From contig JAYTWK010000039.1 in assembly GCA_043743715.1 (NCBI GenBank), positions 1-61,428 of the forward strand: a stretch of DNA of 61,428 bases, given 5' to 3'. The position numbers and the translations under genes are program-made. Below are positions 4,085 through 61,278 of this stretch, in pieces (position 1 is the stretch's first letter; each line of letters starts with the position of its first letter). This stretch comes from a bacterium. Its GTDB lineage: Bacteria > Patescibacteriota > Minisyncoccia > Phycocordibacterales > UBA6899. The notes under the pieces were generated by a model. It did no database searches. It had not been told where the DNA came from and saw nothing but the letters and a program-made list of their open reading frames with translations.

Positions 4085-5340
4085 TGACTGCTCACCTTAC
4101 TCGTTTGAGTCGGCGACATTTCTTTTGTCCGTACGTGTTCTGGACGAATGCCGATGCCGATGATATAGGCAGGTATAGCACTAAGTAGGGGAAACCACTT
4201 GAGGAGATTGAGCGGAAATCCGATATTAAGTGGTGTGCGGTCTCCCGTATCAGTGAGAATACTTTTCATGATGCGATTCTGAACAAATACCTGAAAGCGC
4301 TGAGTAAGTCTTGCCGGGAATTCGCGCCGCTTCTGCACTTCCTTGAGGTCTCGAAGTGTAACGCCACCGCGCGCAAATGCCGGTACCAATATGTTCGCCG
4401 TCGCCACCGCATCTTGTATAGCGAAGTTGATGCCGACGCCTCCGACCGGGCTCATGGTGTGTGCGGCGTCGCCTATAGCAAGAAATCCGTCGCGTTGCCA
4501 TTCGAAGAGATGCTCGACTGAAACCGACAGCATTTTCACTTTCTCCCAGCTAGCGACTTCTTTTACTCGCTCGCCGAGGAATGGTGCGAGGTGAAGAATA
4601 TTTTGCTGCAACGCTGCTATCCCACGTGCTTTGATATGCGGAAATTCTCCCTTCGCTATCACAAATCCGCACTGCCAGTATTCGGTGCGGTTAATCATCG
4701 GCATCATCAGTCCACGGTCAATTCTTCCGAGAGATTTGTCACCGTCTGTTTCTGTCCGTGAAATACTAAACCAGAGCACATCCATGGGTGCGCCGAGGTC
4801 TTCACTTGTAAGACCGCTCAAGGGTCTCACGGTCGAATGTCTACCATCAGCCGCAATGACGAGGTCTGCGCGGATATCAAACGTACTCGTAGTATCCTTG
4901 GCCTTTATGCCGACAATTTTGTCGTGTTCAATAATGAGGTCGGTCGCCTCAGTTGCCATCAGGAGGTGAAAAGAAGGAAATCGCTTCGCTTCGCCTGATA
5001 TGAAATTCAGGAAATCCCATTGTGGAATGAATGCTATATACGGCTCTCTGAGTTTAAGACGTGAGAAATCAGCAACAATCATTTTTTCCCCACTGATGCT
5101 CGCCTCCATTTGGCGGGTCTTTGCATGCTTGAGGGCGAGGAATTTATCTAGAATTCCTAATTCATACAAATTCTCCATGGTCGACGGATGAATCGTGTCC
5201 CCGCGAAAGTCACGAAAAAAATCAGGCCACTTCTCAAGCACGGTAACGTCGATGCCCGAACGCGCGAGTAAGTATCCAAGCATAATACCCGCAGGTCCAC
5301 CGCCCGAGATGGCAACTTTGGTAGCAAGGTCTTTATCCAT
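4081..5340 (-). CDS. FAD-dependent monooxygenase/oxidoreductase (UbiH-like family)
   Basis: GGGPAG dinucleotide-binding N-terminus and GDAAHTMSPVGGVGINFAIQDA motif. Confidence 0.8.
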   Translation of the reverse strand: MDKDLATKVAISGGGPAGIMLGYLLARSGIDVTVLEKWPDFFRDFRGDTIHPSTMENLYELGILDKFLALKHAKTRQMEASISGEKMIVADFSRLKLREPYIAFIPQWDFLNFISGEAKRFPSFHLLMATEATDLIIEHDKIVGIKAKDTTSTFDIRADLVIAADGRHSTVRPLSGLTSEDLGAPMDVLWFSISRTETDGDKSLGRIDRGLMMPMINRTEYWQCGFVIAKGEFPHIKARGIAALQQNILHLAPFLGERVKEVASWEKVKMLSVSVEHLFEWQRDGFLAIGDAAHTMSPVGGVGINFAIQDAVATANILVPAFARGGVTLRDLKEVQKRREFPARLTQRFQVFVQNRIMKSILTDTGDRTPLNIGFPLNLLKWFPLLSAIPAYIIGIGIRPEHVRTKEMSPTQTSKVSSH

Positions 5341-5426: not shown

Positions 5427-5497
5427 TGGGGGATCGTCTAACGGTAGGACAGTGCCCTTTGAAGGCATTAATTGGGGTTCGATTCCCTGTCCCCCAG
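5427..5497 (+). tRNA. tRNA-Gln (anticodon UUG)
   Basis: Hand-folded cloverleaf with acceptor TGGGGGA/TCCCCCA, anticodon stem GTGCC/GGCAT, loop CTTTGAA and T-loop TTCGATT. No CCA is encoded. Confidence 0.85.
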
Positions 5498-5580
5498 CAA
5501 TCTCGTGCAGTGCTCGAGGCATATGTGTGTCCCGAGCATTTGAGATGAATGCTTAACAAATCTCCAACAGGGGAGATACA

Positions 5581-6195
5581 ATGAAAATTATGAAAAAGGG
5601 AGTTATTTACATCATGACAACGGCAGTTTCCGGACTCATAAAAATCGGACAAACTGGCACTGAGAATTATCAAGAGCGCATGCGTAATTTAGAAGCGAAC
5701 GGCTACTACAACGTGGTCGGTTTGAAGCGCGCGTTTGCAATTGAGCTTGATGATTATCAAGAAAAGGAAAGCTTGCTCCATGAGATTTTTAGTCGTCAGC
5801 GCATCGGCGAAAGCGAATTATTCGCACTCGACATCGAATTGGCAAAACAGTTGTTCTTGTCGTTTGAAGGCAAGGTTACTTTTCCAAAGGAAGTTGATAA
5901 AGATAAGGACTTTGAAGAAGTTGCAAAAAACAGAAGGCAGGGCGCTCTCTTTAGTTTTTATAAAAAAAGTATTAAAGATGGCGATGAAATCGTATTTATT
6001 GCCGATAAGGAAATTGTGGCGAAAGTTGTTGGTGAGCGGGAAGTGGAATATGGTGGACAAATATGGAAGTTGGCTCCACTCACTGCCCACATTTATGAAC
6101 AGAAAGGAGAGTTGAATGAAAGCGGTTCTTACCAAGGGGCAGCCTACTGGTCATATAATGGCAAGCGTCTAAGAGAATTACCTGACAAATACTAA
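5581..6195 (+). CDS. GIY-YIG / T5orf172-type nuclease-domain protein
   Basis: GVIYIMTT...GLIKIGQT...R...E N-terminal module typical of GIY-YIG/T5orf172. The C-terminal half is unassigned. Confidence 0.6.
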   Translation: MKIMKKGVIYIMTTAVSGLIKIGQTGTENYQERMRNLEANGYYNVVGLKRAFAIELDDYQEKESLLHEIFSRQRIGESELFALDIELAKQLFLSFEGKVTFPKEVDKDKDFEEVAKNRRQGALFSFYKKSIKDGDEIVFIADKEIVAKVVGEREVEYGGQIWKLAPLTAHIYEQKGELNESGSYQGAAYWSYNGKRLRELPDKY

Positions 6196-6198
6196 TCA

Positions 6199-6451
6199 GG
6201 CGGTAGTGCCTTTATTTTTTGGGTTCTTCACAGGTTTCTTCATGACAAGCACACAGATGATTACAAGTAGTTAATACTTATAAGCGCGATAACAAGGGGA
6301 ACTGGGGACAAGTCAACATTTCCATCATGTTCATAGTCTAACATTTTCACAAACTGGCTTGCCCACTCCTCATCACCATAAGGCGTCTGTTGTCACGGTT
6401 GAAGACGTGATAGACAATGTCACCGAGTGTGATACGAGGCAGGAGCGGCAT
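6199..6451 (-). pseudogene. decayed IS200/RAYT-like Y1 transposase remnant
   Basis: The minus strand reads MPLLPRITLGDIVYHVFNRDNRRL, then a stop. DEEWASQFVKMLDYEHDGNVDL follows in another frame, then an NHL-containing piece in a third frame. This order mimics PRI..G..YHV..RGNRR / DED...L..L / NH.HL of COG1943 proteins. Confidence 0.35.
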
Positions 6452-6580
6452 AGATTATATCTATCGCATGTAAGTTATCATTTATTTGGACTTATCTCAT
6501 TCTCTCCCTGTTATCTTCATCTAAACTTCATGAGTTTCTGATATCTTCATAATGGAGGCTTTAATACATAATATTTATTC

Positions 6581-6730
6581 ATGCTCTACACTATCGCCGT
6601 TGTTCTTGTTCTTCTTTGGTTGTTCGGAATCGTTACCTCTTACACGCTAGGTGGGTTCATACACCTTCTTCTCGCAGTAGCGGTCATCGTCATACTGTTA
6701 CGTATTATTAAGGGAGAAAGGCCACTATAG
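6581..6730 (+). CDS. 49-aa two-helix membrane protein (lmo0937-like family)
   Basis: MLYTIAVVLVLLWLFGIVTSYTLGGFIHLLLAVAVIVILLRIIKGERPL. It falls below the ORF-track length cutoff and has a paralog at 7014. Confidence 0.6.
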   Translation: MLYTIAVVLVLLWLFGIVTSYTLGGFIHLLLAVAVIVILLRIIKGERPL

Positions 6731-7013
6731 ACTGGTACCAGCAATAAATATACCGTAAACTGAGATTATTATTTATTTAACAAAACATCTTAAAGAAATT
6801 CCATAATATATAGTATCAACGCCCGTAGTGTTAGATGCAATGCATAATACAAACAGAAGAATTGCGTCGAAGTCTGCAGGTGTATGCCCTATGTAAACTC
6901 TCTACACGAAAGATTCTTGATTGTAATGTAATATGACAACTCAAGTCGCGCTATACTAACTACATGAGTAATACTGCTCATAGATATTTATCTCATTAAC
7001 ATAATTATATTAT

Positions 7014-8449: not shown

Positions 8450-8914
8450 ATGCAAAAAATAGCACCATTTCTCTGGTTTGAAACCGGAGCAAAAGAAGCG
8501 GCAGAATTCTATGTCAACGTATTCGGTCCGGATGCGAAGATCACATCGTCCCAAGTGATGGAGGGGACACCTTCCGGCACCGTCGAGATTATGAGCATCT
8601 CGCTCAAGGGTCAGGAGTTCACACTCATGACTGCCGGACCGTTCCGCAAATTCAATGAAGCGATATCATTTGTCATTACTTGTGATGATCAGCAAGAGGT
8701 TGACCACTACTGGGAAAAACTCTCTGCGGTCAAAGAATCAGAGCAGTGCGGTTGGCTGAAGGATAAGTACGGGGTGTCATGGCAGGTGGTACCGACCGCG
8801 CTCGGCCGCCTGATGGGTGATCCGGACAGGGTGAAGGCAGGACGTGTGCAGGCGGCAATGATGCAGATGAAAAAAATCATCATTGCAGACCTGGAAAAAG
8901 CCTACGCTCTGTAG
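8450..8914 (+). CDS. VOC-superfamily protein (PhnB / 3-demethylubiquinone methyltransferase-like domain)
   Basis: ATG 8450. IAPFLWF...AEEAAEFY-type N-terminus and CGWLKDKYGVSWQV motif. Confidence 0.75.
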   Translation: MQKIAPFLWFETGAKEAAEFYVNVFGPDAKITSSQVMEGTPSGTVEIMSISLKGQEFTLMTAGPFRKFNEAISFVITCDDQQEVDHYWEKLSAVKESEQCGWLKDKYGVSWQVVPTALGRLMGDPDRVKAGRVQAAMMQMKKIIIADLEKAYAL

Positions 8915-8949
8915 CCACAGTAACAGCCAGAGTGTAAATAGCGGAAAAC

Positions 8950-10716
8950 ATGCTAGCCTATACCATATGTATGGGAAAGCAATCGGGTGACGCAGTAAAA
9001 CAACCGCGGGAGGAGGGACTCTTCAGCATACTAGGTGCATACAAAGGACTGATTTTCGCTCTGGTCATCTTCACGATACTCGGCAATGCACTGAATCTGG
9101 TGATGCCGAAAATAGTCGCGCGCGCCATCGATAATTTTGCTGCGGGCAATTTTGACCTGACTCTTGTCTCCGTACAATTCCTGCTGGTTGCTATTGGTGT
9201 CTTCGTCTTCTCCTACCTGCAGAATATTGTTCAGACCTATGTATCAGAGAAAGTTGCTCGCGATCTGCGCAGTACATTCATCGGCAAACTCTCACTCAAA
9301 GAATATGCCTACATCGAGGAAGTGACTCCGGCGAAACTGCTGACAAATATGACTTCCGATATCGACGCAATAAAGAATTTTGTATCACAAGCCATCGCGT
9401 CACTCATCTCGTCTGTCTTCCTCATCATCGGCGCAAGCGTGCTGCTCATCATGATAGATTGGCGGCTCGCGCTCGCGGTCCTCATCATCGTGCCTATTAT
9501 CGGCGGAGTATTCTTCGTGGTACTTCGCAAGGTCCGCAAACTTTTCACCAAGGTCCAGGAAGCCATCGACTGGCTGAATAAGGTGATCAATGAAAGTATT
9601 TTGGGCGCCGCGCTGATCCGTATCCTCAACTCGCACCAATATGAGTACCAGAAATTTATTGATGCCAACTCAGAGGCGAAGGAGATAAGCATGAGCATTT
9701 TGCGTTTGTTCGCGAGTCTCATTCCGGCCATCATGTTTACCACCAATTTCGCGACCCTCATCATTCTCTCACTTGGCGGACACTTTGTGATAAACGGCAG
9801 TATGACGCTCGGTGGCTTCAGTGCGTTCAACAGTTACCTTGCAATACTTGTCTTTCCTATCATTCTTATCGGTTTCATGAGCAATGTTATTGCGCAGGCG
9901 CAGGCATCATTCGCGCGCATCACGAAAGTACTCTCGTCTCCCGACCAGAAAGAGAGTGGCACACGCACTGGCGTTATCCACGGCGACATCAGCGTCAGAA
10001 ACCTCACGCTCCTCTACGGCGAGCGCGCAGCACTCAAGGATGTGTCATTTAATATCGCCAAGGGCCAGAAGACCGCTCTCATCGGCCCCACCGCGGCGGG
10101 GAAGACTCAGCTTCTCTATGCCCTGTGCGGGTTAGTGAAGACCACGAAAGGTTCCATTAGCTATGACGGTCATCCGCTCGCCGAGTACAAGAAAGAGACA
10201 CTTCACGGCCAGATCGGACTAGTATTTCAGGACAGCATCATGTTCAACCTCTCACTGCGTGAGAATATCGCATTCAATAATGAAGTGGAGGATGCGAGCA
10301 TTGAGAAAGCGATAGCGACCGCCGAACTTTCTGATTTTATTGCCGAGCTTCCCGAAGGCCTTGATACACTCGTCTCCGAGCGTGGCACCAGCCTCTCGGG
10401 CGGACAGAAGCAGCGCATCATGCTCGCGCGTGCCTTGGCACTTGATCCGAAGATACTGTACCTCGATGATTTTACCGCACGCGTCGACAATGCGACCGAG
10501 AAAAAAATCTTGGCCAATGTCACGAAGAATTACCCTGGCCTGACGCTTATCTCGGTGACCCAAAAGATTGCCCCGATAGAACATTATGACCAAGTGATAC
10601 TCTTGGTTGAAGGCGAAGTACTCGGAGTAGGTACGCACAAAGCGTTGATGGAGTCAGTCCCGGAGTACGTGCAGATTTATGATTCACAGCAAAGTACCGA
10701 AAACTATGAACTATAA
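8950..10716 (+). CDS. ABC exporter, fused permease/ATPase (half-transporter 1)
   Basis: Six-TM domain, then Walker A GPTAAGKT, signature LSGGQKQR and Walker B ILYLDD. Confidence 0.9.
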   Translation: MLAYTICMGKQSGDAVKQPREEGLFSILGAYKGLIFALVIFTILGNALNLVMPKIVARAIDNFAAGNFDLTLVSVQFLLVAIGVFVFSYLQNIVQTYVSEKVARDLRSTFIGKLSLKEYAYIEEVTPAKLLTNMTSDIDAIKNFVSQAIASLISSVFLIIGASVLLIMIDWRLALAVLIIVPIIGGVFFVVLRKVRKLFTKVQEAIDWLNKVINESILGAALIRILNSHQYEYQKFIDANSEAKEISMSILRLFASLIPAIMFTTNFATLIILSLGGHFVINGSMTLGGFSAFNSYLAILVFPIILIGFMSNVIAQAQASFARITKVLSSPDQKESGTRTGVIHGDISVRNLTLLYGERAALKDVSFNIAKGQKTALIGPTAAGKTQLLYALCGLVKTTKGSISYDGHPLAEYKKETLHGQIGLVFQDSIMFNLSLRENIAFNNEVEDASIEKAIATAELSDFIAELPEGLDTLVSERGTSLSGGQKQRIMLARALALDPKILYLDDFTARVDNATEKKILANVTKNYPGLTLISVTQKIAPIEHYDQVILLVEGEVLGVGTHKALMESVPEYVQIYDSQQSTENYEL

Positions 10717-53222: not shown

Positions 53223-53295
53223 GGGCCGTTAGCTCATCTGGTAGAGCACCGCATTTGCAATGCGGGGGTGGCAGGTTCGAGTCCTGTACGGTCCA
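53223..53295 (+). tRNA. tRNA-Ala (anticodon UGC)
   Basis: Acceptor GGGCCGT/ACGGTCC with the G3:U70 alanine identity pair, anticodon loop TTTGCAA and T-loop GGTTCGAGTCC. No CCA is encoded. Confidence 0.9.
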
Positions 53296-53297
53296 CA
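53279..53297 (+). repeat. attL-like direct repeat (3' end of tRNA-Ala)
   Basis: GAGTCCTGTACGGTCCACA, identical 19/19 to 60134-60152. Confidence 0.85.
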
Positions 53298-53461
53298 AAA
53301 TTAATAAGTCCGCACTCAGCGGACTTATTAATTTTGTGTTGTAATCGCGTTCGCGCGAACCTTTTTTGAGAGGAATGAACAAGGGTAACTCAGGCACCCC
53401 CGCTCGCTCCGCTCGTCGCCCCTCGGCATCTCCGGCTCCCGATTTTTTCCGCCCCGCCATA
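53294..53461. repeat. left ~170-bp terminal inverted repeat; its outer 45 nt form a 20-bp-stem hairpin that also serves as the tRNA-Ala terminator
   Basis: The reverse complement aligns with 59849-60019 at roughly 90 percent identity by eye. The hairpin is CACAAAATTAATAAGTCCGC-ACTCA-GCGGACTTATTAATTTTGTG. Confidence 0.8.
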
Positions 53462-53515
53462 CTTTAAATCAAGAAAGCGTTTCGCTTACCTTAATGCATC
53501 TCCTTTCAACATAGA

Positions 53516-53541
53516 AAGATATTTCTATATAGAAATATCTT
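53516..53541. promoter_or_regulatory. 26-bp perfect palindrome (C-box-like operator) overlapping a TACAAT -10 upstream of the XRE gene
   Basis: AAGATATTTCTAT|ATAGAAATATCTT. TACAAT lies at 53541-53546 and the ATG at 53560. Confidence 0.6.
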
Positions 53542-53559
53542 ACAATTATGTTATCCTAA

Positions 53560-53778
53560 ATGCAATCAACTATGGGGGATATTTCTGTTAAGTTTGGAAA
53601 GCGGGTTAAAGAAATCCGTGTTAAGAAGGGTTTTTCGCAAGGCAGTCTTGCGAAGATTTTAGGGGTACACCCATCTGATATTAGTGGCATAGAGCGAGGC
53701 AAAAGGAATATGTCACTGAAGAACATTGAAAGACTGGCAAAAGCACTTAATGTTACGATTCAAGCGCTGATTAGCTGA
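53560..53778 (+). CDS. XRE-family HTH regulator, probable RM controller (C) protein
   Basis: 72 aa. FGKRVKEIRVKKGFSQGSLAKILGVHPSDISGIERGKRN is a canonical HTH_3 domain, positioned just upstream of an RM gene pair. Confidence 0.8.
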   Translation: MQSTMGDISVKFGKRVKEIRVKKGFSQGSLAKILGVHPSDISGIERGKRNMSLKNIERLAKALNVTIQALIS

Positions 53779-53837
53779 AATGAATATACTCACCACGCTA
53801 AGTGGCCGGATTTTTTGTGACCTCGTGTTCTGTCATG

Positions 53838-53870
53838 TGTGCATAACTATTTTGCACAATAGGATATAAT
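53838..53870 (+). promoter_or_regulatory. dyad TGTGCA-N9-TGCACA followed by TATAAT 6 nt upstream of the RM gene ATG
   Basis: Dyad at 53838-53858, TATAAT at 53865-53870, ATG at 53877, no SD. Confidence 0.4.
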
Positions 53871-53876
53871 TAGAAA

Positions 53877-55733
53877 ATGTTGAATGAACGGATTACCGAA
53901 AATCTTGTGCGCGATCGTTTGCGCAAATTGAAATACTATGACAGTGAGGCGGTTACGATTGAGGAACAACGGAGTGACGTGGCTGCGATTAAACGACTTT
54001 TGCGTGGAGCGAGCAAGACTGGCGGCGTTGGTTCTGGGTATCCCGAATTTATTATTACGACAAGCGCAACGCCTGATTTTATTTTTATTATCGAGTGTAA
54101 GGCTGACGCCAAAAAACACCAAAGTAAAACATTTGATCAGGTTAAGGATTTTGCTGTTGATGGAATATTGCATTATGCAAAGTCACTCTCCAGAGAATTC
54201 AACATTATTGCCGTTGCAATAAGTGGACAAACAAAAGCTGACCAAAAATTTTCCGCCTTTATTCACCCAAAGCTCAGCAAGGAGGCAAAAATATTATGCA
54301 ATAAATCTGGAAAGCCACTGGATGAGCTCATTTCATTAGATGATCTAATTTCCCTTGGGAGTTACGACCCCTCAGTTGAGAAGCAACGACACGACGACCT
54401 AATGGCATTTTCTCGTGAATTACATGACTTCATGAGAGATCATGCAAAACTTACCGAAAGCGAAAAACCTCTTTTGGTGAGTGGCACACTTATCGCCCTA
54501 AGAAATGAACCTTTTGCAAAAAGTTTTGTGAACTACAAGCCTTCAGAATTGCAGAAAGCTTGGCTTAGAGTGATAAAAGAAGAAATAGAAAAGGCAGACA
54601 TACCAAACTCAAAAAAGGACAACATGGCCCAACCCTATTCTTCGATAGCCGTACACCCTGAGTTGGGTAAGCCCACTAAGGTTTACCCTTATGGAGTTTT
54701 GCGAGAGCTTATTCAAATGCTAAACAATAGGGTCTGGCCTTTTCTCAGTATTTATCATGACTTTGATGTTGTGGGGCAATTTTACGGTGAATTTTTAAAA
54801 TACACTGGAGGCGACAAGAAGGCGCTTGGAATTGTTTTGACGCCCCGCCATATAACAGAACTCTTCGCTTCCTTGGCAAACTTAAATAAAAAATCCAGAG
54901 TCCTTGATATTTGCTGCGGGACGGGCGGGTTTCTTATTTCATCCATGACGATGATGATTAAACAGGCGATGAACAAACGTGAAATTGAATACATCAAGAA
55001 AGAGGGTCTTATTGGCGTTGAACAACAGCCGAATATGTATGCCTTAGCGGCCAGCAATATGATTTTACGTGGCGACGGCAAGGCAAACCTTTATCAGGGG
55101 AGCTGTTTTGATCAAGAAATTACCAAGGAAATCAAGAAACATAAATGCGATACTGGGATGGTTAACCCGCCATACGCGCAAAAAGACGAAGAGTCTCAAG
55201 AGCTCAAGTTTGTTTTTCAGATGTTAAATTTACTGGAAAAAGGGGGCACCGGGATTGCAATTGTTCCCATGTCTTGCGCAATAAATCCGTCTAGTCCTGG
55301 CAGAGAGGAGTTGTTAAAGTATCATACACTTGAAGCAGTGATGTCGATGCCGGATGAATTATTTTATCCGGTGGGTACCGTTACTTGCATTATGGTCTTT
55401 ACTTCGCATGTCCCTCACGGCGAGTCAAACAAAAAGACATGGTTTGGATATTGGAAGGATGATGGTTTTGTAAAAACTAAACACCTAGGTAGAGTTGATT
55501 TAAATGAAACATGGGCCACTATCCGCGAAAGTTGGATTGATGCTTTTCGTAACAGGGATAATATCCCCGGCTTAAGCGTAAAGCAGAAGGTTGGCCCAAA
55601 TGACGAATGGTGTGCTGAGGCATACATGGAAACAGACTACTCAAAATTAACAGAGAAGGACTTCGAAAACACAATTAGAAACTACACGCTGTTTAGGTTA
55701 AACGAACAAGCAGAAAATGATAAAAGTAAGTGA
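53877..55733 (+). CDS. fused PD-ExK endonuclease / gamma-class N6-adenine DNA methyltransferase (BcgI-A-like RM subunit)
   Basis: The N-terminus has GYPEF...PDFIFIIECK. The MTase has motif I VLDICCGTGGFL upstream of motif IV VNPPYA. Confidence 0.8.
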   Translation: MLNERITENLVRDRLRKLKYYDSEAVTIEEQRSDVAAIKRLLRGASKTGGVGSGYPEFIITTSATPDFIFIIECKADAKKHQSKTFDQVKDFAVDGILHYAKSLSREFNIIAVAISGQTKADQKFSAFIHPKLSKEAKILCNKSGKPLDELISLDDLISLGSYDPSVEKQRHDDLMAFSRELHDFMRDHAKLTESEKPLLVSGTLIALRNEPFAKSFVNYKPSELQKAWLRVIKEEIEKADIPNSKKDNMAQPYSSIAVHPELGKPTKVYPYGVLRELIQMLNNRVWPFLSIYHDFDVVGQFYGEFLKYTGGDKKALGIVLTPRHITELFASLANLNKKSRVLDICCGTGGFLISSMTMMIKQAMNKREIEYIKKEGLIGVEQQPNMYALAASNMILRGDGKANLYQGSCFDQEITKEIKKHKCDTGMVNPPYAQKDEESQELKFVFQMLNLLEKGGTGIAIVPMSCAINPSSPGREELLKYHTLEAVMSMPDELFYPVGTVTCIMVFTSHVPHGESNKKTWFGYWKDDGFVKTKHLGRVDLNETWATIRESWIDAFRNRDNIPGLSVKQKVGPNDEWCAEAYMETDYSKLTEKDFENTIRNYTLFRLNEQAENDKSK

Positions 55734-56664
55734 TCTTTTTGACGTCAGATATGGTGTTAACTTAGAGCTCAATAAACTTGAGTTAGATTCGCATGGGGTT
55801 AACTTTGTTTCTCGCACAGCCAAAAACAACGGCGTCTCAGCGAGGGTAAAATTAATCGAGGGGGTGACACCACTGGAAGCAGGATTGATAACTGTTGCTG
55901 GTGGCGGGAGTGTGCTTGAGACCTTTCTTCAACCAGAGCCATTTTACAGTGGACGGGACTTGTATTATTTGCGTCAAAAGGTGGATCTTACTAATGCTCA
56001 AAAACTATACTATTGTCTTTGTATTCGTTCTAATAAATATCGTTACAACTATGGTAGACAAGCCAATCGTACTCTCGGTGACATTGTTGTACCCATCCCG
56101 AGCGATTTACCAAAATGGGTAAGTAGCGAAAAAATTGAAGATTATTCACATGTACAAGGAAGGGTATTGAGTGGCGACGTCGACAATCTTCAAACTCAAA
56201 AATGGAAATGGTTTCGATACGACACCCTTTTTGAGATTAAAAAAGGCAAGCGCCTAACAAAGCAACACATGGTGCAAGGAGAGACGTTATTTATTGGCTC
56301 AACCGACACAAAAAATGGATTGACAGCGCGCATAGGGCAAGCACCAATTCATAGTCAAAATACAATTTCTATTTCCTATAACGGGAGTGTTGCGGAGGCG
56401 TTTTATCAACCCGAACCTTACTGGGCCACAGACGACGTTAACGTGTTGTATCCAAAATTTAGCTTGAATCCATTCATCGGTTTATTTTTGTGTACAGTTA
56501 TTAAGCAAGAAAAATATCGTTATAATTATGGAAGAAAATGGCACCTAGGGCGCATGAACGAATCATTAATAAAGCTTCCCGCAACAACCGACGGTACGCC
56601 TGATTGGAGATATATGGAAAATTATGTTAAGCACCTCCACTTTTCTGCTGGAGTAGAATCCTAG
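55717..56664 (+). CDS. specificity (S) subunit with two paralogous target-recognition halves
   Basis: Overlaps the upstream gene by 17 nt. The halves start LFDVRYG / LFEIKKGKRLT and end YRYNYGRQANRTLGDIVVPIP / YRYNYGRKWHLGRMNESLIKLP. Confidence 0.7.
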   Translation: MIKVSDLFDVRYGVNLELNKLELDSHGVNFVSRTAKNNGVSARVKLIEGVTPLEAGLITVAGGGSVLETFLQPEPFYSGRDLYYLRQKVDLTNAQKLYYCLCIRSNKYRYNYGRQANRTLGDIVVPIPSDLPKWVSSEKIEDYSHVQGRVLSGDVDNLQTQKWKWFRYDTLFEIKKGKRLTKQHMVQGETLFIGSTDTKNGLTARIGQAPIHSQNTISISYNGSVAEAFYQPEPYWATDDVNVLYPKFSLNPFIGLFLCTVIKQEKYRYNYGRKWHLGRMNESLIKLPATTDGTPDWRYMENYVKHLHFSAGVES

Positions 56665-56745
56665 ATAAGCAATTGGGTTATCCGCGACTGCACCTAAGAT
56701 TGCCCGCACCTTGTGTGACCCTGCTTTCGGATGTAGGGTTTCTAA

Positions 56746-58335
56746 GTGCCCACCACAGCAAATAAAACAAAGACAAATAAACTCACGGTCTATCTCATCA
56801 AGCCCGAGTTTTCAGCGCTTGAAGATATTGTTGATCCTACAACCCGCATACAAGATATTGACGGTGTGGGAACGTTTCTCTTTGAAAATTCACACACGAA
56901 CATACCTAATTGGGTAAAAGGTTTTTTTGGTTCAACATTGTCCGAAGATCTTCAAATATTTACAGCAAGTGCCCGAGGAATGCTGATCGTGCCAATCTCT
57001 CTGAATAATACGATAATTACTTTTGCCGTATCGTTCGGAGTCGGACGTTTTTTACTGAAAGAAGGCGTTGCTGAAGAGCGCTTTGGGCTCAAGGTTGTAT
57101 TGAATTCAACGGGCGAAGATGGTTTTCGTAGTATCGACAAAACTACTCTTGGCTCTGTCCCCAAACATAGTCGTGAGCAAATGAGCAGAGATGTCGCACC
57201 TTCCGACTTCGGGATAGACATTGAGCAAGACCTTGTGGGACTTGTAACTGCAAGATCAAATGATCAAGATTTCGGAAAAATTATCACAGGAAGAGATGCA
57301 CTCAACCTTTCTGTAAAAGTCGATGTATCCAATATTGTTGATTTTCTTAAGCATTGCTATGAACGGTACTTAAGCGACGACTATAAAGTAAACTTCAGTT
57401 GGATTGATCAAATTTCAGAAGTTCGAAACAAGCTAAAAGAGGAGGAACTTTTTTCTGCGGTCGTTGGCCGTATTAACAATAATCAGCTTGATAAGATTTG
57501 GATGGCTGTCCCTGAGGTAATAAATTGGGCTGATATTCGCGGCTTCCGATATTTGAGAGCAAAGCAAGCAGACCTAGAGGATGATCTTGGCATCGAGAGA
57601 TTCTTGGAGTCTCTCGATGGCAGACAACTCACAATAGATGAACTCAAAGATGCGCCAATCTATGTTATTTCAGCTCAGAATGATGACACCATTATGCGCT
57701 GGTCAGCTTTTCGTTGTGTCTATGCTGAAATTGAACTTGAAGGAAAAACGTATATTCTCAACAATGGAAGGTGGTACGAAATTGCGAGTGATTTTACTCA
57801 AGAAGTGCAAAGAGATTTTGCGAGTGTACCAGATTCAACCATTGCGTTGCCTGATTATATCTCCGGAGACGAATTAGAATATAACACAACCGCATCTGGG
57901 ACCCTCGCGGGAGCGTGTTGTATGGATCAGAAGTTAATTAACCATGGAGGAGGTCATAATAAAATTGAATTTTGTGATATATTCACTAATGATAAGAAAA
58001 TAATTCACGTAAAGAAATATGGCGGATCAAGTATTTTGAGCCATCTCTTTGCGCAAGGAATGGTTTCGGGTGAACTGTTCATTGGTGATGAAGAATTTCG
58101 TCGCAAGCTAAATGTTCATTTACCTAGAACTCATAAACTTTCAAATATTCGGACTCGGCCCAATCCTTCCGAGTACGAAGTCGTCTACGCAATCATCAGC
58201 AAATCAACTGACCCGCTCGACATACCATTTTTCAGTAAGGTAAGTTTGAGAAATTCTGCAAAACGACTCAAGACACTGGGGTATAACGTTTCAAAGAAGA
58301 AAATAGTCAAAACTGCCACTACAATGCACCTCTAG
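56746..58335 (+). CDS. TIGR04141/DUF6119-like protein of unknown function, possible nuclease
   Basis: 529 aa with a GTG start. The N-terminus KLTVYLIKPEF and the size match my recollection of the family. The C-terminal MDQK...IEFCDIF...IIHVKK looks like a variant PD-(D/E)xK core. Confidence 0.55.
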   Translation: MPTTANKTKTNKLTVYLIKPEFSALEDIVDPTTRIQDIDGVGTFLFENSHTNIPNWVKGFFGSTLSEDLQIFTASARGMLIVPISLNNTIITFAVSFGVGRFLLKEGVAEERFGLKVVLNSTGEDGFRSIDKTTLGSVPKHSREQMSRDVAPSDFGIDIEQDLVGLVTARSNDQDFGKIITGRDALNLSVKVDVSNIVDFLKHCYERYLSDDYKVNFSWIDQISEVRNKLKEEELFSAVVGRINNNQLDKIWMAVPEVINWADIRGFRYLRAKQADLEDDLGIERFLESLDGRQLTIDELKDAPIYVISAQNDDTIMRWSAFRCVYAEIELEGKTYILNNGRWYEIASDFTQEVQRDFASVPDSTIALPDYISGDELEYNTTASGTLAGACCMDQKLINHGGGHNKIEFCDIFTNDKKIIHVKKYGGSSILSHLFAQGMVSGELFIGDEEFRRKLNVHLPRTHKLSNIRTRPNPSEYEVVYAIISKSTDPLDIPFFSKVSLRNSAKRLKTLGYNVSKKKIVKTATTMHL

Positions 58336-58434
58336 GCTCTCCAGTAGCTCAAGGAGCACCACTTCACTTCGCATCTGTGTCCTATACGACCCCCTCTTTT
58401 ACGTATGTAAGCCATATTTTGATACAATATAGCC

Positions 58435-59118
58435 ATGGACAATCCTAAACCTTCTGAACTCGAAATTGAGCCTACCGGCGAGGCTAATACTAGCGCTCCA
58501 GTCACTCTCCCGATAAATGACGCAGTTGAGCCACCCCAGACAGAGCCAACACAAGCACCCACAGAGCATGTCCCGACACCCGAAACGCCTCAAACTGAGC
58601 CATTATCTGAGCCGTTACAAACCTCGCCCGAAACCCCAACGCCTCATTTGCCGGCAGATGAGGCGTTCCCGGAATCTGCACCTGAACCCACAGCCGAGGC
58701 GCCCAAGCTGGAAACTCCAGCGCCATCATCAGCCCCAACCCAAAACACAAACACGCCTGAGGAGTCACCTCGAACCCCACCACCAACACAACAAGGCACA
58801 GCACAACCCGAACCACCGCCCACTCCTGCATCAGCTCCCGCATCCCTGCCCGCACAAGCGCCCACGGAAACTCCCCAAAATATTCTCATGCTTCTGCTCA
58901 CCAAAGCACGGCTTGTCACCCAACTCCGCAAACACAAAAAACTCATAAAAATTATGGGGCTGTTTGCAAAGAAATCACATATCACTAATGACGATGTCGA
59001 GAAACTCTTGCACGTCTCCGACGCAACCGCACTCCGCTATCTCACCCAACTCAAAAAGGAGAACAAGATCGTACAAAATGGAAAGACTGGGCAAGGTGTC
59101 ACGTACTCCAAACGCTAA
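58435..59118 (+). CDS. Pro/Thr/Glu-rich protein with a C-terminal winged-helix DNA-binding domain
   Basis: About 150 aa of low complexity, then IMGLFAKKSHITNDDVEKLLHVSDATALRYLTQLKKENKIVQNGKTGQGVTY. An alternative short form could start near MLLL. Confidence 0.5.
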   Translation: MDNPKPSELEIEPTGEANTSAPVTLPINDAVEPPQTEPTQAPTEHVPTPETPQTEPLSEPLQTSPETPTPHLPADEAFPESAPEPTAEAPKLETPAPSSAPTQNTNTPEESPRTPPPTQQGTAQPEPPPTPASAPASLPAQAPTETPQNILMLLLTKARLVTQLRKHKKLIKIMGLFAKKSHITNDDVEKLLHVSDATALRYLTQLKKENKIVQNGKTGQGVTYSKR

Positions 59119-59848
59119 CGTACACTGAGTCTTCCGACCACGTCGGGTCAGCTCTCGCACCAACTATCAGCCGTACCCCACACTTGGATTCCTCCGGCCT
59201 CGGGCATTTCCGCTAGGGCGATCCCTTTCTCACCGGGTGAGCGCCGCCCCGAACGAAGGCACCAAACTCTGATAGCGAAAGCGACACAACATACTCGGTA
59301 ATGAAAACAGGGTTGGGGGGTTGTGCGAGTGGCTGCTTCTGAAGGTCCTCGAACGAAGCCAACGACTCAAACGCTAACAGAGCTCTGAGAGACCCTAACC
59401 GCAAACTACCACTACGAAGAAGGGCCCGACGCTGGGGGGAAGGGTCGGCCCTCCCCCCAACTAGAGGCGGAGTGTGCCTCGCCGGTTCGAAGCCTCCATG
59501 GTCTAACGCCTCATCTACCGGCAAATGAGGCGTTCAGCTCAAACCAACGGCTCATATAGGCGAGGCGACCGCCCGCACACTGGCATCTAGGCGCGAGTAG
59601 CCCTAGCGGAAATGCCTGAGGCCGGATGGCCGAGGGTGCACCAAGTCCAACAACCTCTCACTCCAATCGCCGCACCGAGGTCGGAGGGCGATCACGGGAG
59701 TCGAATCGGAGAGAGGAATGGGAGGCGGCGCACAAACGTATGGAGGAAGCACCCCCGACTGACACACCCGAGAGGAGTGGGCTCTGCCACTCCGGCAAGG
59801 GTGTGACAGAGCCCCTTCGGCAATCTCCTTCCATATTCGCAGTTTTCT
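59119..59848. other. GC-rich non-coding module with nested long-range helices
   Basis: No credible ORF. A sampled 60-nt line (59401-59460) has 40 G+C, versus 23 for a line in the RM gene. Confidence 0.6.
59193..59626 (+). repeat. 27-bp inverted repeat pair enclosing 380 nt (long-range RNA helix or MITE-like TIRs)
   Basis: 59193-59219 pairs with 59600-59626 at 26 Watson-Crick positions plus one G-T, which is a G-U wobble only on the plus strand. Confidence 0.75.
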
Positions 59849-60019
59849 TATGGCGGGGTGGAAAAAATCGGGAGCCGGAGATGCCGAGGGGCGACGAGCG
59901 AAGCGAGCGGGGGTGCCTGAGTCTTCATTGTCCATTCCTCTCGAAAAAGGTTCGTGCGAACGCGATCACAACACCACAAAATTAATAAGTCCGCATGCTG
60001 CGGGCTTATTAATTTTGTG
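59849..60019. repeat. right ~170-bp terminal inverted repeat with terminal 20-bp-stem hairpin
   Basis: Mirror copy of 53294-53461. Hairpin 59975-60019 is CACAAAATTAATAAGTCCGC-ATGCT-GCGGGCTTATTAATTTTGTG. Confidence 0.8.
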
Positions 60020-60133
60020 AATCGTAAGCAAAACAACTGCTTGTTTTGCGTCAGGACGAGAAGAGGTTTTCCCATATTTCTAAGGATTTTTAATCCGAAG
60101 AAATGGGAAACCTACACTGTTGCTTTAGGCAAA

Positions 60134-60152
60134 GAGTCCTGTACGGTCCACA
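60134..60152 (+). repeat. attR-like direct repeat (copy of the tRNA-Ala 3' end)
   Basis: GAGTCCTGTACGGTCCACA, 19/19 identical to 53279-53297. Confidence 0.85.
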
Positions 60153-60265
60153 GCAACTAAAACGCCTTTAGAAATTGGAAGTACTCAAAGTGGTGCAGCT
60201 GAAACCGCGAGCTGGGGTCGCGAACACTTACATTTTCTGGCCTGCAAGCAAGATCTGTAAATTTC

Positions 60266-60300
60266 AATAAATAAAATGCCCCATGCAATCAGCATGGGGC
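60266..60300 (-). terminator. intrinsic terminator of the minus-strand SLT gene
   Basis: GCCCCATGC-AATCA-GCATGGGGC, followed on the minus strand by ATTTTATTTATT. Confidence 0.65.
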
Positions 60301-60357
60301 GGTTCGATTCGAGGAGCTTGTCCTCATGTTAGTTTCCGGGTTTTGAGACATGAGAAA

Positions 60358-61278
60358 TTACTTGAGTGCCAGAGCTTCCGAGTAAACATGACCATGAGCT
60401 TCGAGTACGTTGTAGTTGCGTAGTACTCTCCGCACATAACCGTCACTGCGAGGATCGAAACTCTCGCGGTACAAGAACTTCCGATTGCCTTCACGTCCAT
60501 GGTACGGGCCGATGTGGTAGCCGATGAGCGTGCGCTCGATCGCATGCGGTAGGCCGATAAAAAGCGCGGCATAGGTCGTGAGTGCGCCATAACCAGCTCG
60601 ATAGTTGTGTACAGGATTAAACGCATTTCCTCCACCGAACCTCGCCATCGTGTCAGGTGTCAGCTGCATTAAGCCTTCGCTCTTTGCCTTGGATTTGTCA
60701 CTAGGAATACATACCGCGTGCGGATTGCCCCTGGACTCTTCGAGTGTAATAGCGATCAGTAGATGCTTCACTTGAGAAAGGTTGAGTCCAGCTGTGATCA
60801 GGACGGCGGTCTTACCACTCGCTACTTGTGCGTCAATATGCTTGCCAAATTTCTGGACGATACAGTCAGCACGAACCACAATACGCTTCACTTCATCGTA
60901 GATGCGGCTCCCGAGGTAGTCGCAGCTCGTTTTTGAAAAGGTGGCAACTGTGCTGACATTAGACACAACAGTTCGGACGGGAACAAGCAACTTATCCCTA
61001 GAAGCCACAACACGATGAGTCTTATTCACTTTCCTAGAAGCTTTCAGCTTCGTCGAGTCTTTCTTCCTGACTGTATACTCGGGTAATGCTGATCCCGCGG
61101 GTATCACGACGTTATGAGTCTTGATAACAGCAGTGGAAGACGTACTGAACAGAAGCACCAGGGCAATCGCAATGGTCATCGCTATCGCGATTGCAAGCAG
61201 GTGGAAGTTTGTGGGTAGGGCGGGGGAGGAATGTGTGTGCTGCCGGCTCCGCACGAGAAAGGGTGTTCTCTTAGTCAT
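60358..61278 (-). CDS. membrane-anchored lytic transglycosylase (SLT domain) protein
   Basis: ATG 61278 preceded by AGGAGA. TM helix, then LEESRGN...SEGLMQLTPDT...GYHIGP. Confidence 0.75.
   Translation of the reverse strand: MTKRTPFLVRSRQHTHSSPALPTNFHLLAIAIAMTIAIALVLLFSTSSTAVIKTHNVVIPAGSALPEYTVRKKDSTKLKASRKVNKTHRVVASRDKLLVPVRTVVSNVSTVATFSKTSCDYLGSRIYDEVKRIVVRADCIVQKFGKHIDAQVASGKTAVLITAGLNLSQVKHLLIAITLEESRGNPHAVCIPSDKSKAKSEGLMQLTPDTMARFGGGNAFNPVHNYRAGYGALTTYAALFIGLPHAIERTLIGYHIGPYHGREGNRKFLYRESFDPRSDGYVRRVLRNYNVLEAHGHVYSEALALK

Follow-up and report, generated by a model that had tools for sequence, protein, structure and literature searches.

The GC-rich block at positions 59119-59848 of the window (the whole 61,428-nt stretch of bacterial DNA analysed here) is very probably the gene for a large structured non-coding RNA, its transcript extending probably to 59975-60019, that belongs to a family distributed across the Patescibacteria (CPR) and lying outside Rfam 15. 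The family is widespread in this branch and apparently undescribed; no published description of the element was found in the open-access literature searched. The RNA appears to constitute a new class of large structured RNA and, judged from its sequence, the window copy is a divergent member of the family.

Architecture of the RNA core

The first-pass annotation of this DNA, made from the letters alone, had singled out the block as GC-rich and as containing nothing but overlapping pseudo-ORFs. Both observations hold. The GC content is 0.581 over 59001-60000 as compared with 0.41-0.49 in the neighbouring kilobases, and 59119-59848 contains only short, overlapping ORFs, none of which has a Pfam match. 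The bounds originally drawn around the region coincide almost exactly with those of the RNA core, whose fold begins at about 59129 and which ends with a short linker at 59831-59848. From there the RNA unit probably runs on to a hairpin at 59975-60019, for a total of about 0.9 kb. Folding of 59119-59985 relative to shuffled sequences gives z = -4.9 for the plus strand and -5.4 for the minus strand; since both strands fold more stably than the shuffles, by about five standard deviations, the stability shows genuine self-complementarity and does not itself decide the strand. The core and its helices are as follows.

59119-59848, plus strand: structured RNA core, homologous to 18 loci, with 60 of 71 consensus pairs kept and no Rfam match
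59129-59139, plus strand: 5' strand of the closing helix P0, paired with 59679-59689 (RNAduplex, -24.4 kcal/mol) in the MFE fold
59679-59689, plus strand: 3' strand of P0, paired with 59129-59139 in the MFE fold and present in the inverted-repeat listing (I15)
59193-59219, plus strand: left arm of the 27-bp long-range helix P3, identified by pairing, shuffles and covariation
59600-59626, plus strand: right arm of P3, GCCCTAGCGGAAATGCCTGAGGC, which no other sequence in the family matches in conservation
59223-59237, plus strand: P4 hairpin, CCC/GGG in the window and UCC/GGA in most homologues
59241-59245, plus strand: P3b strand GCGCC, whose partner GGCGC lies at 59590-59594, closing the inner multiloop
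59275-59282, plus strand: P5 GNRA-tetraloop hairpin GCGAAAGC, kept in this form or as GACGAAAGUC or GCGGAAGC in 12 of 19 sequences
59433-59459, plus strand: P7 hairpin GGGGGGAAGGG / CCCUCCCCCC, in the inverted-repeat listing (I13), with compensatory changes and formed in 19 of 19 sequences
59467-59582, plus strand: P8 domain, comprised of an outer stem, the GCCTCGCC/GGCGAGGC stem and a terminal 30-nt hairpin (59505-59534)

P3 is the long-range helix that had been proposed between 59193-59219 and 59600-59626, and it stands as described. Watson-Crick pairs are formed at 26 of its 27 positions, and the odd position, G in the left arm and T in the right, is a G.U pair on the plus strand only. The left-arm pattern, with up to three mismatches allowed, has exactly two matches in the 61 kb, one on each strand, and matches in none of 100 dinucleotide-preserving shuffles. 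Throughout the family, members are recognised by the P3 core CAUUUCCGCUAGGG / CCCUAGCGGAAAUG with its GCGCC/GGCGC extension, by P7 and P8 between the arms and by a P0; all of these are present in the window, where P3 has 27 of 27 pairs including the one G.U.

Inside P3, which measures 23-27 bp and is almost invariant across the family, lies a multiloop that carries P4, an optional GNRA hairpin P5, a G-rich P6, P7 (10-11 bp) and a branched P8. The sequence of the P8 outer stem differs in nearly every subfamily with the pairing maintained. The nested GCCTCGCC/GGCGAGGC stem around the hairpin at 59505-59534, also remarked upon at first reading, is part of the MFE fold and corresponds to a conserved domain in the homologues. 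The smaller local hairpins of the first-pass annotation fared unevenly: GCGAAAGC is conserved and covaries, and its loop is a GNRA loop on the plus strand only, whereas the other three are found in the window alone. Two of these, CTCAC-CGG-GTGAG and GAGGC-N7-GCCTC, compete with conserved pairings, and GAGTGG-N6-CCACTC is located in an expansion unique to the window copy.

In other loci the equivalent of P0 covaries (e.g. GGGAGCCC/GGGCUCC vs AAGGGAGUUCC/GGACUCCUUU), and in nearly all copies the 5' end pairs with a stretch 25-50 nt past the start of the right arm; the window closes P0 with sequence unrelated to that used by the other copies. The GGGAG/CACGGGUGGG 5' motifs are missing, and for the 5' motif GGGAG...GCGCGCACGGGUGGG the window has only a weak counterpart, CCGACCACGUCGGGUC. 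The loss of the 5' motifs, the 11 of 71 consensus pairs that are broken and an inverted repeat (described below) that is only 89% identical may indicate that this copy is decaying.

Homologues, covariation and probable transcription

The comparison set consisted of 19 distinct sequences, the window plus 18 loci related to it, which come from Paceibacteria, Saccharibacteria, Nomurabacteria, Doudnabacteria and metagenomes. The exact right-arm 23-mer is found at 10 loci in GTDB genomes from at least five CPR lineages, labelled Paceibacteria, Saccharibacteria, Nomurabacteria, Doudnabacteria and "Patescibacteria group", with one bin labelled Woesearchaeota; the matches are often less than 250 nt from a contig end, and two are in one MAG. 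Gene callers often predict a spurious minus-strand ORF (motif RHPPxxFPLGL) on the element, and its products number 213 in 90%-identity clusters and at least 250 cluster representatives at 50% identity. With this motif as bait, exact-protein look-ups led to seven more distinct loci with long flanks. Parts of the region also occur in DNA runs from sediment, groundwater and freshwater, where coverage is concentrated on 59539-59672 and the contigs are short and numerous, with gaps of variable length at hairpin positions. A pattern scan of metagenome contigs returned one true homologue and one chance match. Neither BLAST against phage and plasmid collections nor a pattern scan of IMG/VR gave a match to the element.

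Covariation among these sequences is clear. In the alignment of P3, P4 and P3b over all 19 sequences, 93.7% of cells are paired, vs 33-43% when the partners are slid by one to three columns. Two-sided changes occur at five pairs, a number reached in none of 500 shuffles, and two helix positions display the full series A-U / G.U / G-C and G-C / G.U / A-U. RNAalifold, applied to 10 sequences including the window, yields 71 pairs, 13 of them with compensatory changes; the window retains 60 of the 71. Folded singly, all 19 sequences adopt the same architecture of P7 and branched P8 with stems of differing sequence. G.U or U.G occupies 25 cells of the 19-sequence alignment, cells at which a minus-strand RNA would have mispairs, and A.C or C.A only four. 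This asymmetry, together with GNRA loops that are readable on the plus strand only, identifies the plus strand as the folded strand.

The element is likely transcribed, and an abundant RNA is suggested. The evidence consists of contigs of homologues, which carry no strand information; the window's own sequence was present in no RNA run searched. Contigs of a Saccharibacteria homologue, L008, occur in 20 RNA-seq runs (wastewater, estuary, sediment, sludge and others). In three wastewater metatranscriptomes the summed contig depth is 200-2500 over positions 3640-4430 of L008 and 0 in the flanks, 3640 being its GGGAG 5' end and 4430 its terminator hairpin. The strongest of the RNA libraries also contain contigs of 48-93 kb as well as flanking contigs at depth 117-172, one of them 3.5 kb long and bounded by inverted copies of the 3' segment; part of the summed depth, and perhaps much of it, therefore reflects many copies, with some DNA possibly present as well. 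Element contigs are present in small, unrelated metatranscriptomes too. One such contig passes from P8 through the right arm and the linker into the 3' segment, which indicates that a single molecule can contain both the core and the 3' segment. One RNA-seq contig reaches 89 nt beyond the presumed 5' end. In many copies GGGAG is directly preceded by an AT-rich stretch that resembles a promoter; no sigma-70-like promoter was found upstream of the element in the window.

A large ornate non-coding RNA near tRNA genes and on mobile DNA was the leading suggestion of the first-pass annotation, and it is supported by the CPR homologues, the covariation, the G.U asymmetry, the GNRA loops and the RNA-seq contigs. 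None of the families named there for comparison (ROOL, GOLLD, HEARO, raiA, group I and II introns) accounts for it. In the window, cmscan with Rfam 15 at the gathering threshold reports two tRNAs only. At E<=10 over 58900-60400 there is no match to ROOL, GOLLD, HEARO, OLE or raiA, and the homologous loci give no family match at the gathering threshold or at E<=1. Group I and group II introns were rejected on the lack of an Rfam match and on the flanks, which are a winged-helix gene and an island end and not the halves of a split gene.

The cargo island and its borders

In the window the RNA closes an island that occupies 53297-60152 and is inserted at a tRNA-Ala gene. The order is tRNA-Ala, hairpin, inverted 3' segment, cargo, winged-helix gene, RNA, 3' segment, hairpin and spacer, with the following features.

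53223-53296, plus strand: tRNA-Ala(TGC), the island insertion site, found by Rfam cmscan
53287-53461, minus strand: inverted copy of the 3' segment and hairpin H, on the far side of the cargo and abutting the tRNA-Ala 3' end
53560-58335, plus strand: island cargo, namely a controller protein, a type IIG restriction-methyltransferase, a specificity subunit and a DUF6119/TIGR04141 protein
58435-59118, plus strand: winged-helix regulator gene directly upstream of the RNA, conserved over only about its last 80 codons
58638-58667, no strand assigned: 30-nt palindrome, almost the same as the terminal hairpin of P8 (59505-59534)
59849-59974, plus strand: 3' segment of the RNA unit and right copy of the inverted repeat; the equivalent segment of homologues is in RNA-seq contigs
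59975-60019, no strand assigned: palindromic hairpin H, probable bidirectional terminator and 3' end of the RNA; L008 coverage stops at its equivalent
60020-60133, plus strand: conserved 114-nt spacer from hairpin H to the tRNA-end repeat, homologous to 6950-7098 of L009
60134-60152, plus strand: 19-nt direct repeat of the tRNA-Ala 3' end, equal to 53279-53297 and forming the right border of the island

Across the family the element is the last module of a cargo island. The island itself is located either beside a tRNA gene, with a repeat of the tRNA 3' end as its border, or beside a large serine recombinase gene that is divergent. Cargo varies by island and includes restriction-modification systems, Fic and toxin genes, a P-type ATPase, mercury-type genes and a tail-fibre-like peptidase. 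Large serine recombinases lie at the far end, divergent from the cargo, in four loci (L004, L010, L025 and L028) and share 37-64% identity with one another; no integrase or recombinase gene is present within the window island, 53297-60152.

The inverted repeat of the window pairs 59849-60026 with 53461-53287 over 178 nt. Seven other loci (L003, L004, L008, L010, L014, L015 and L025) have an inverted copy of the 3' segment at 99-100% identity; the repeated segment begins 106-124 nt past the start of the right arm, and its inverted copy lies several kb upstream. The outer end of the inverted copy abuts the 3' end of tRNA-Ser in L008 and lies about 100 nt past tRNA-Val in L014. In L015 a 21-nt tRNA-Asp end is present three times, along with a repeated block of hairpin and spacer. 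Nothing in these islands is more intriguing than the perfect maintenance, around the cargo, of this second, inverted copy. A simple guide RNA was considered and rejected: in four loci the core shows no specific complementarity of 8 nt or more to the adjacent tRNA gene.

The winged-helix gene marks one of two subfamilies. In the window and in L001, L002, L009 and L015, P8 ends in the palindromic hairpin AACGGCUCAU...AUGAGCCGUU, and a homologous winged-helix gene lies upstream in all five. In four of the five (the window, L001, L002 and L015) a second copy of the 30-nt palindrome lies inside that gene or immediately ahead of it, and it looks like an operator. The homologues are HTH regulators of 54-147 aa, so the 227-codon ORF of the window, with its Pro-rich, C/A-rich N-terminal part, is probably over-extended, and the Pro-rich part may not be real coding sequence. 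An exact-protein look-up of the window ORF found it absent from the records.

Alternative readings, related systems and significance

Hairpins that fold in single-stranded DNA are known from integron attC sites and plasmid sso elements. A DNA-level cis element of this kind (a recombination site, transfer origin or single-strand origin), with the RNA incidental, is unlikely here, though several features would suit it. The element has a constant location at the island end beside the tRNA-end repeat, a large serine recombinase is associated in four loci, perfect inverted repeats surround the cargo, and the helix arms are almost invariant in the manner of protein-binding sites; folded single-stranded DNA, moreover, tolerates G.T wobbles as RNA tolerates G.U. 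Yet a 0.5-kb multi-helix fold with a helix closing 5' and 3' ends and with GNRA loops is typical of RNA and greatly exceeds known single-stranded DNA sites in size, RNA-seq contigs cover the element from end to end, and DNA contigs from the source sample contain no inversion or excision joints (rare forms would escape contigs).

Quite unlikely, and slightly more so, is the reading that makes the element part of the operon before it, whether that of the cargo or of the winged-helix gene. It would then be a structured 3' UTR or cis-regulatory tail, for instance a stabiliser or processed 3' end, and not a trans-acting RNA gene in its own right. The genes upstream are unrelated from locus to locus (ATPase, membrane protein, peptidase, winged-helix regulator), the sequence of the element is conserved across CPR classes whatever its neighbour, and in L011 the element is divergent from the neighbouring gene. 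These points stand against an orientation that matches the cargo in every locus and a start that, in the window, L002 and L015, is no more than a few nt away from the stop codon of the preceding gene. The promoter evidence cuts both ways: a clear promoter was not found in the window and the RNA contig extending 89 nt 5' of the presumed start would fit a tail, but the AT-rich stretch before GGGAG in many copies would not.

The other possibility raised by the first-pass annotation, a MITE or nested transposable element of 434 bp with the 27-bp inverted repeats as its ends, was rejected and has hardly any probability left. The near-perfect 27-bp repeat and the multiple copies at contig ends are what such an element would produce; homology, though, continues past both arms in every copy, by about 65-115 nt on the 5' side of the left arm and by over 100 nt on the 3' side of the right, which makes the arms internal to a conserved unit. 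Before the left arm, most copies have GGGAG...GCGCGCACGGGUGGG in common, followed by a hairpin and GGGGCAAGCA; after the right arm the shared sequence comprises GGAUGCCGAGGGUG and more. The arms are flanked by GGATTCC on the left and TGGCCGA on the right, with no target-site duplication, as had already been observed. They covary as a helix with G.U intermediates, and the interior is conserved and structured. The copy count proposed as a check shows many copies across genomes and at least two in one MAG. The copies are placed at island ends rather than at random, and in the window there are one full copy and one partial copy.

A decayed protein-coding gene of foreign, GC-rich origin, such as an integrase remnant, would explain the elevated GC and the ORFs that gene callers often predict, and was likewise discarded as scarcely credible, since the ORFs have no Pfam match, indels among copies are not in multiples of three, the plus strand has stops in every frame across the most conserved block of the family, and conservation is seen at the level of nucleotides and base pairs, with no conserved reading frame showing codon-type substitutions.

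On the favoured reading of a gene for a large structured RNA, the RNA would be transcribed in the direction of the cargo, in the window behind or together with the winged-helix gene, and would terminate at hairpin H. It would then accumulate stably and serve the island rather than the host. As a best guess, it most likely works as a structural or scaffold RNA to which a sequence-specific partner binds. The 14-bp core of P3, being invariant, suggests that this partner is conserved and, in the subfamily of the window, the adjacent winged-helix protein and the common 30-nt palindrome make that protein a candidate.

The nearest analogues in kind can be seen in ROOL and GOLLD, although the CPR RNA is a member of neither. 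ROOL and GOLLD (Rfam RF03087, RF01998) are large ornate RNAs found in prophages and in Lactobacillales, 0.5-0.9 kb in length, highly structured, protein-free, carried on mobile DNA and often located beside tRNA genes. The CPR RNA is likewise 0.5-0.9 kb, structured, non-coding, borne on mobile DNA and near tRNA genes. It differs in its CPR host, in the absence of any sequence or covariance-model similarity, and in its place at the end of cargo islands, where its 3' segment is present a second time, inverted, across the cargo, an arrangement that, to our knowledge, has not been described for ROOL or GOLLD.

Partial likenesses extend to three DNA systems. With tRNA-targeting islands are shared the repeats of tRNA 3' ends as borders (19 nt of tRNA-Ala in the window, 21 nt of tRNA-Asp in L015) and the defence or resistance genes as cargo; the CPR islands differ in having a conserved RNA gene beside the att site and a large serine recombinase in relatives in place of the usual tyrosine integrase, with no integrase in the window's island. 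As in integron cassettes with attC, a conserved and structured element that is strand-specific comes after variable cargo, and a divergent recombinase stands at the other end of the cargo. The CPR element, however, has 5-10 times the size of attC, occurs in RNA-seq contigs and bears RNA-type motifs; there is one per multi-gene island and not one per cassette, and the recombinase is of the serine and not the tyrosine type. The gin/G segment of Mu and the cin/C segment of P1 resemble L004 and L010, where long, near-identical inverted repeats enclose several kb with a serine recombinase just outside. In contrast to those segments, the CPR recombinases are of the large serine type, the inverted form was not seen, and the repeats copy part of the RNA unit and not coding sequence.

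It is a doubtful proposition, if a far-reaching one, that the RNA and the inverted 3' segment are more than passengers and together form the cis/trans module that defines a new CPR cargo-cassette system. Were it true, the cargo between the repeats would be marked, delimited or mobilised by the RNA itself or by an RNP that it forms with the large serine recombinase or with the winged-helix protein; its action could be inversion or capture beside tRNA genes, and the system would be an RNA-associated counterpart of integron cassettes.

Large ornate bacterial RNAs of more than 500 nt are rare, with fewer than 12 classes known to us, and each known class has pointed to unexpected biology. The case for a new class comprises hundreds of representatives from a major, poorly understood branch of bacteria, clear covariation and homologues in RNA-seq data. 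To this is added a reproducible link to mobile cargo islands with defence and resistance genes. The family provides a well-defined target for structural and RNA-protein studies, and it offers a handle on the movement of gene cargo in CPR genomes, where few mobile-element systems are recognised.

The island at tRNA-Ala and a promoter-like motif

The RNA lies within a 6.9-kb island at tRNA-Ala, and a motif resembling a promoter occurs in both copies of the 3' segment, which lie inverted to one another across the cargo.

Window 53297-60152: island inserted at tRNA-Ala, with 19 nt of the tRNA 3' end repeated at its border.
Window 59940-59972 and 53338-53370: promoter-like motif TTGaAAAaAGGTTCGcGC...TAtAAT; also at homologous loci L004, L007, L009, L013-L015, L027, and L028.

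The cargo comprises a controller protein, a type IIG (BcgI-like) restriction-methyltransferase with a specificity subunit, and a DUF6119/TIGR04141 protein; no recombinase is present within the window island. At its outer end the 3' segment carries this conserved promoter-like motif in outward orientation; the -10 box is degenerate in both window copies. At loci L004 and L010 the left copy is directed towards the serine recombinase gene. Elsewhere in the window, a stretch of low GC (0.39-0.43) comes after tRNA-Gln (5427-5498) and opens with a 204-aa ORF (5581-6195); the region 5427-7000 may be another small tRNA-linked island.

The winged-helix ORF and a shared palindrome

Two features bear on the winged-helix ORF directly upstream of the RNA.

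Window 58435-58880: N-terminal part (two thirds) of the winged-helix ORF, which has 227 codons.
Window 58638-58667 and 59505-59534: 30-nt palindrome AACGCCTCAT-N10-ATGAGGCGTT; also at homologous loci L001, L002, L015, and L028.

The N-terminal part is Pro-rich, with a strong C/A bias and a GC skew of -0.27. Because homologous proteins are only 54-147 aa long, as against 227 codons in the window, it may be a spurious extension of the ORF or a separate non-coding feature. The palindrome is found in two places, at the tip of the P8 domain of the RNA and inside or upstream of the winged-helix gene, and looks like an operator or iteron. At L028 the 3' segment holds approximately six AACGGCTCA/TGAGCCGTT units.

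Contigs in sequencing runs

In metatranscriptome assemblies X21 and X23 a 3.5-kb contig, at a depth of 127-173, has the beginning of the 3' segment at each end, the two copies being inverted relative to each other; this contig is the complete interior of an island at high depth. A DNA contig of low depth in runs X4 and X7 fuses the left arm of helix P3 to the sequence directly preceding the right arm (59220/59584), skipping 363 nt of the element. Either the element exists here in a minimal variant form, or the assembly took a path through the two complementary arms.

Neighbours and repeats at homologous loci

A LOOT RNA (RF03000, 58 bits) lies at 4625-4757 on the minus strand of L003, a Saccharibacteria contig, approximately 4 kb from the element. 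The element also occurs in a typical copy on a 2.2-kb contig (L006) assigned to a DPANN bin labelled Woesearchaeota archaeon, reflecting either mis-binning or cross-domain spread.

Repeats at three of the homologous loci are given in oriented coordinates. At L015 the 21-nt 3' end of tRNA-Asp occurs three times (335, 524, and 6657) and a 235-nt hairpin-spacer block is directly repeated, an arrangement that looks like tandem island remnants at a single att site. L025 carries a 1.78-kb inverted repeat of 95% identity (8493-10250 versus 2782-1034); fragments of an IS110-type transposase within both copies indicate that the inverted repeats have apparently been homogenised or re-copied after insertions. 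At L010 a perfect 120-bp inverted repeat (6-125 versus 1524-1643) flanks the serine recombinase gene. This repeat is the gene's own 3' end and directly adjoins the inverted copy of the RNA 3' segment, a layout that suggests invertible segments lying side by side or a circular intermediate.
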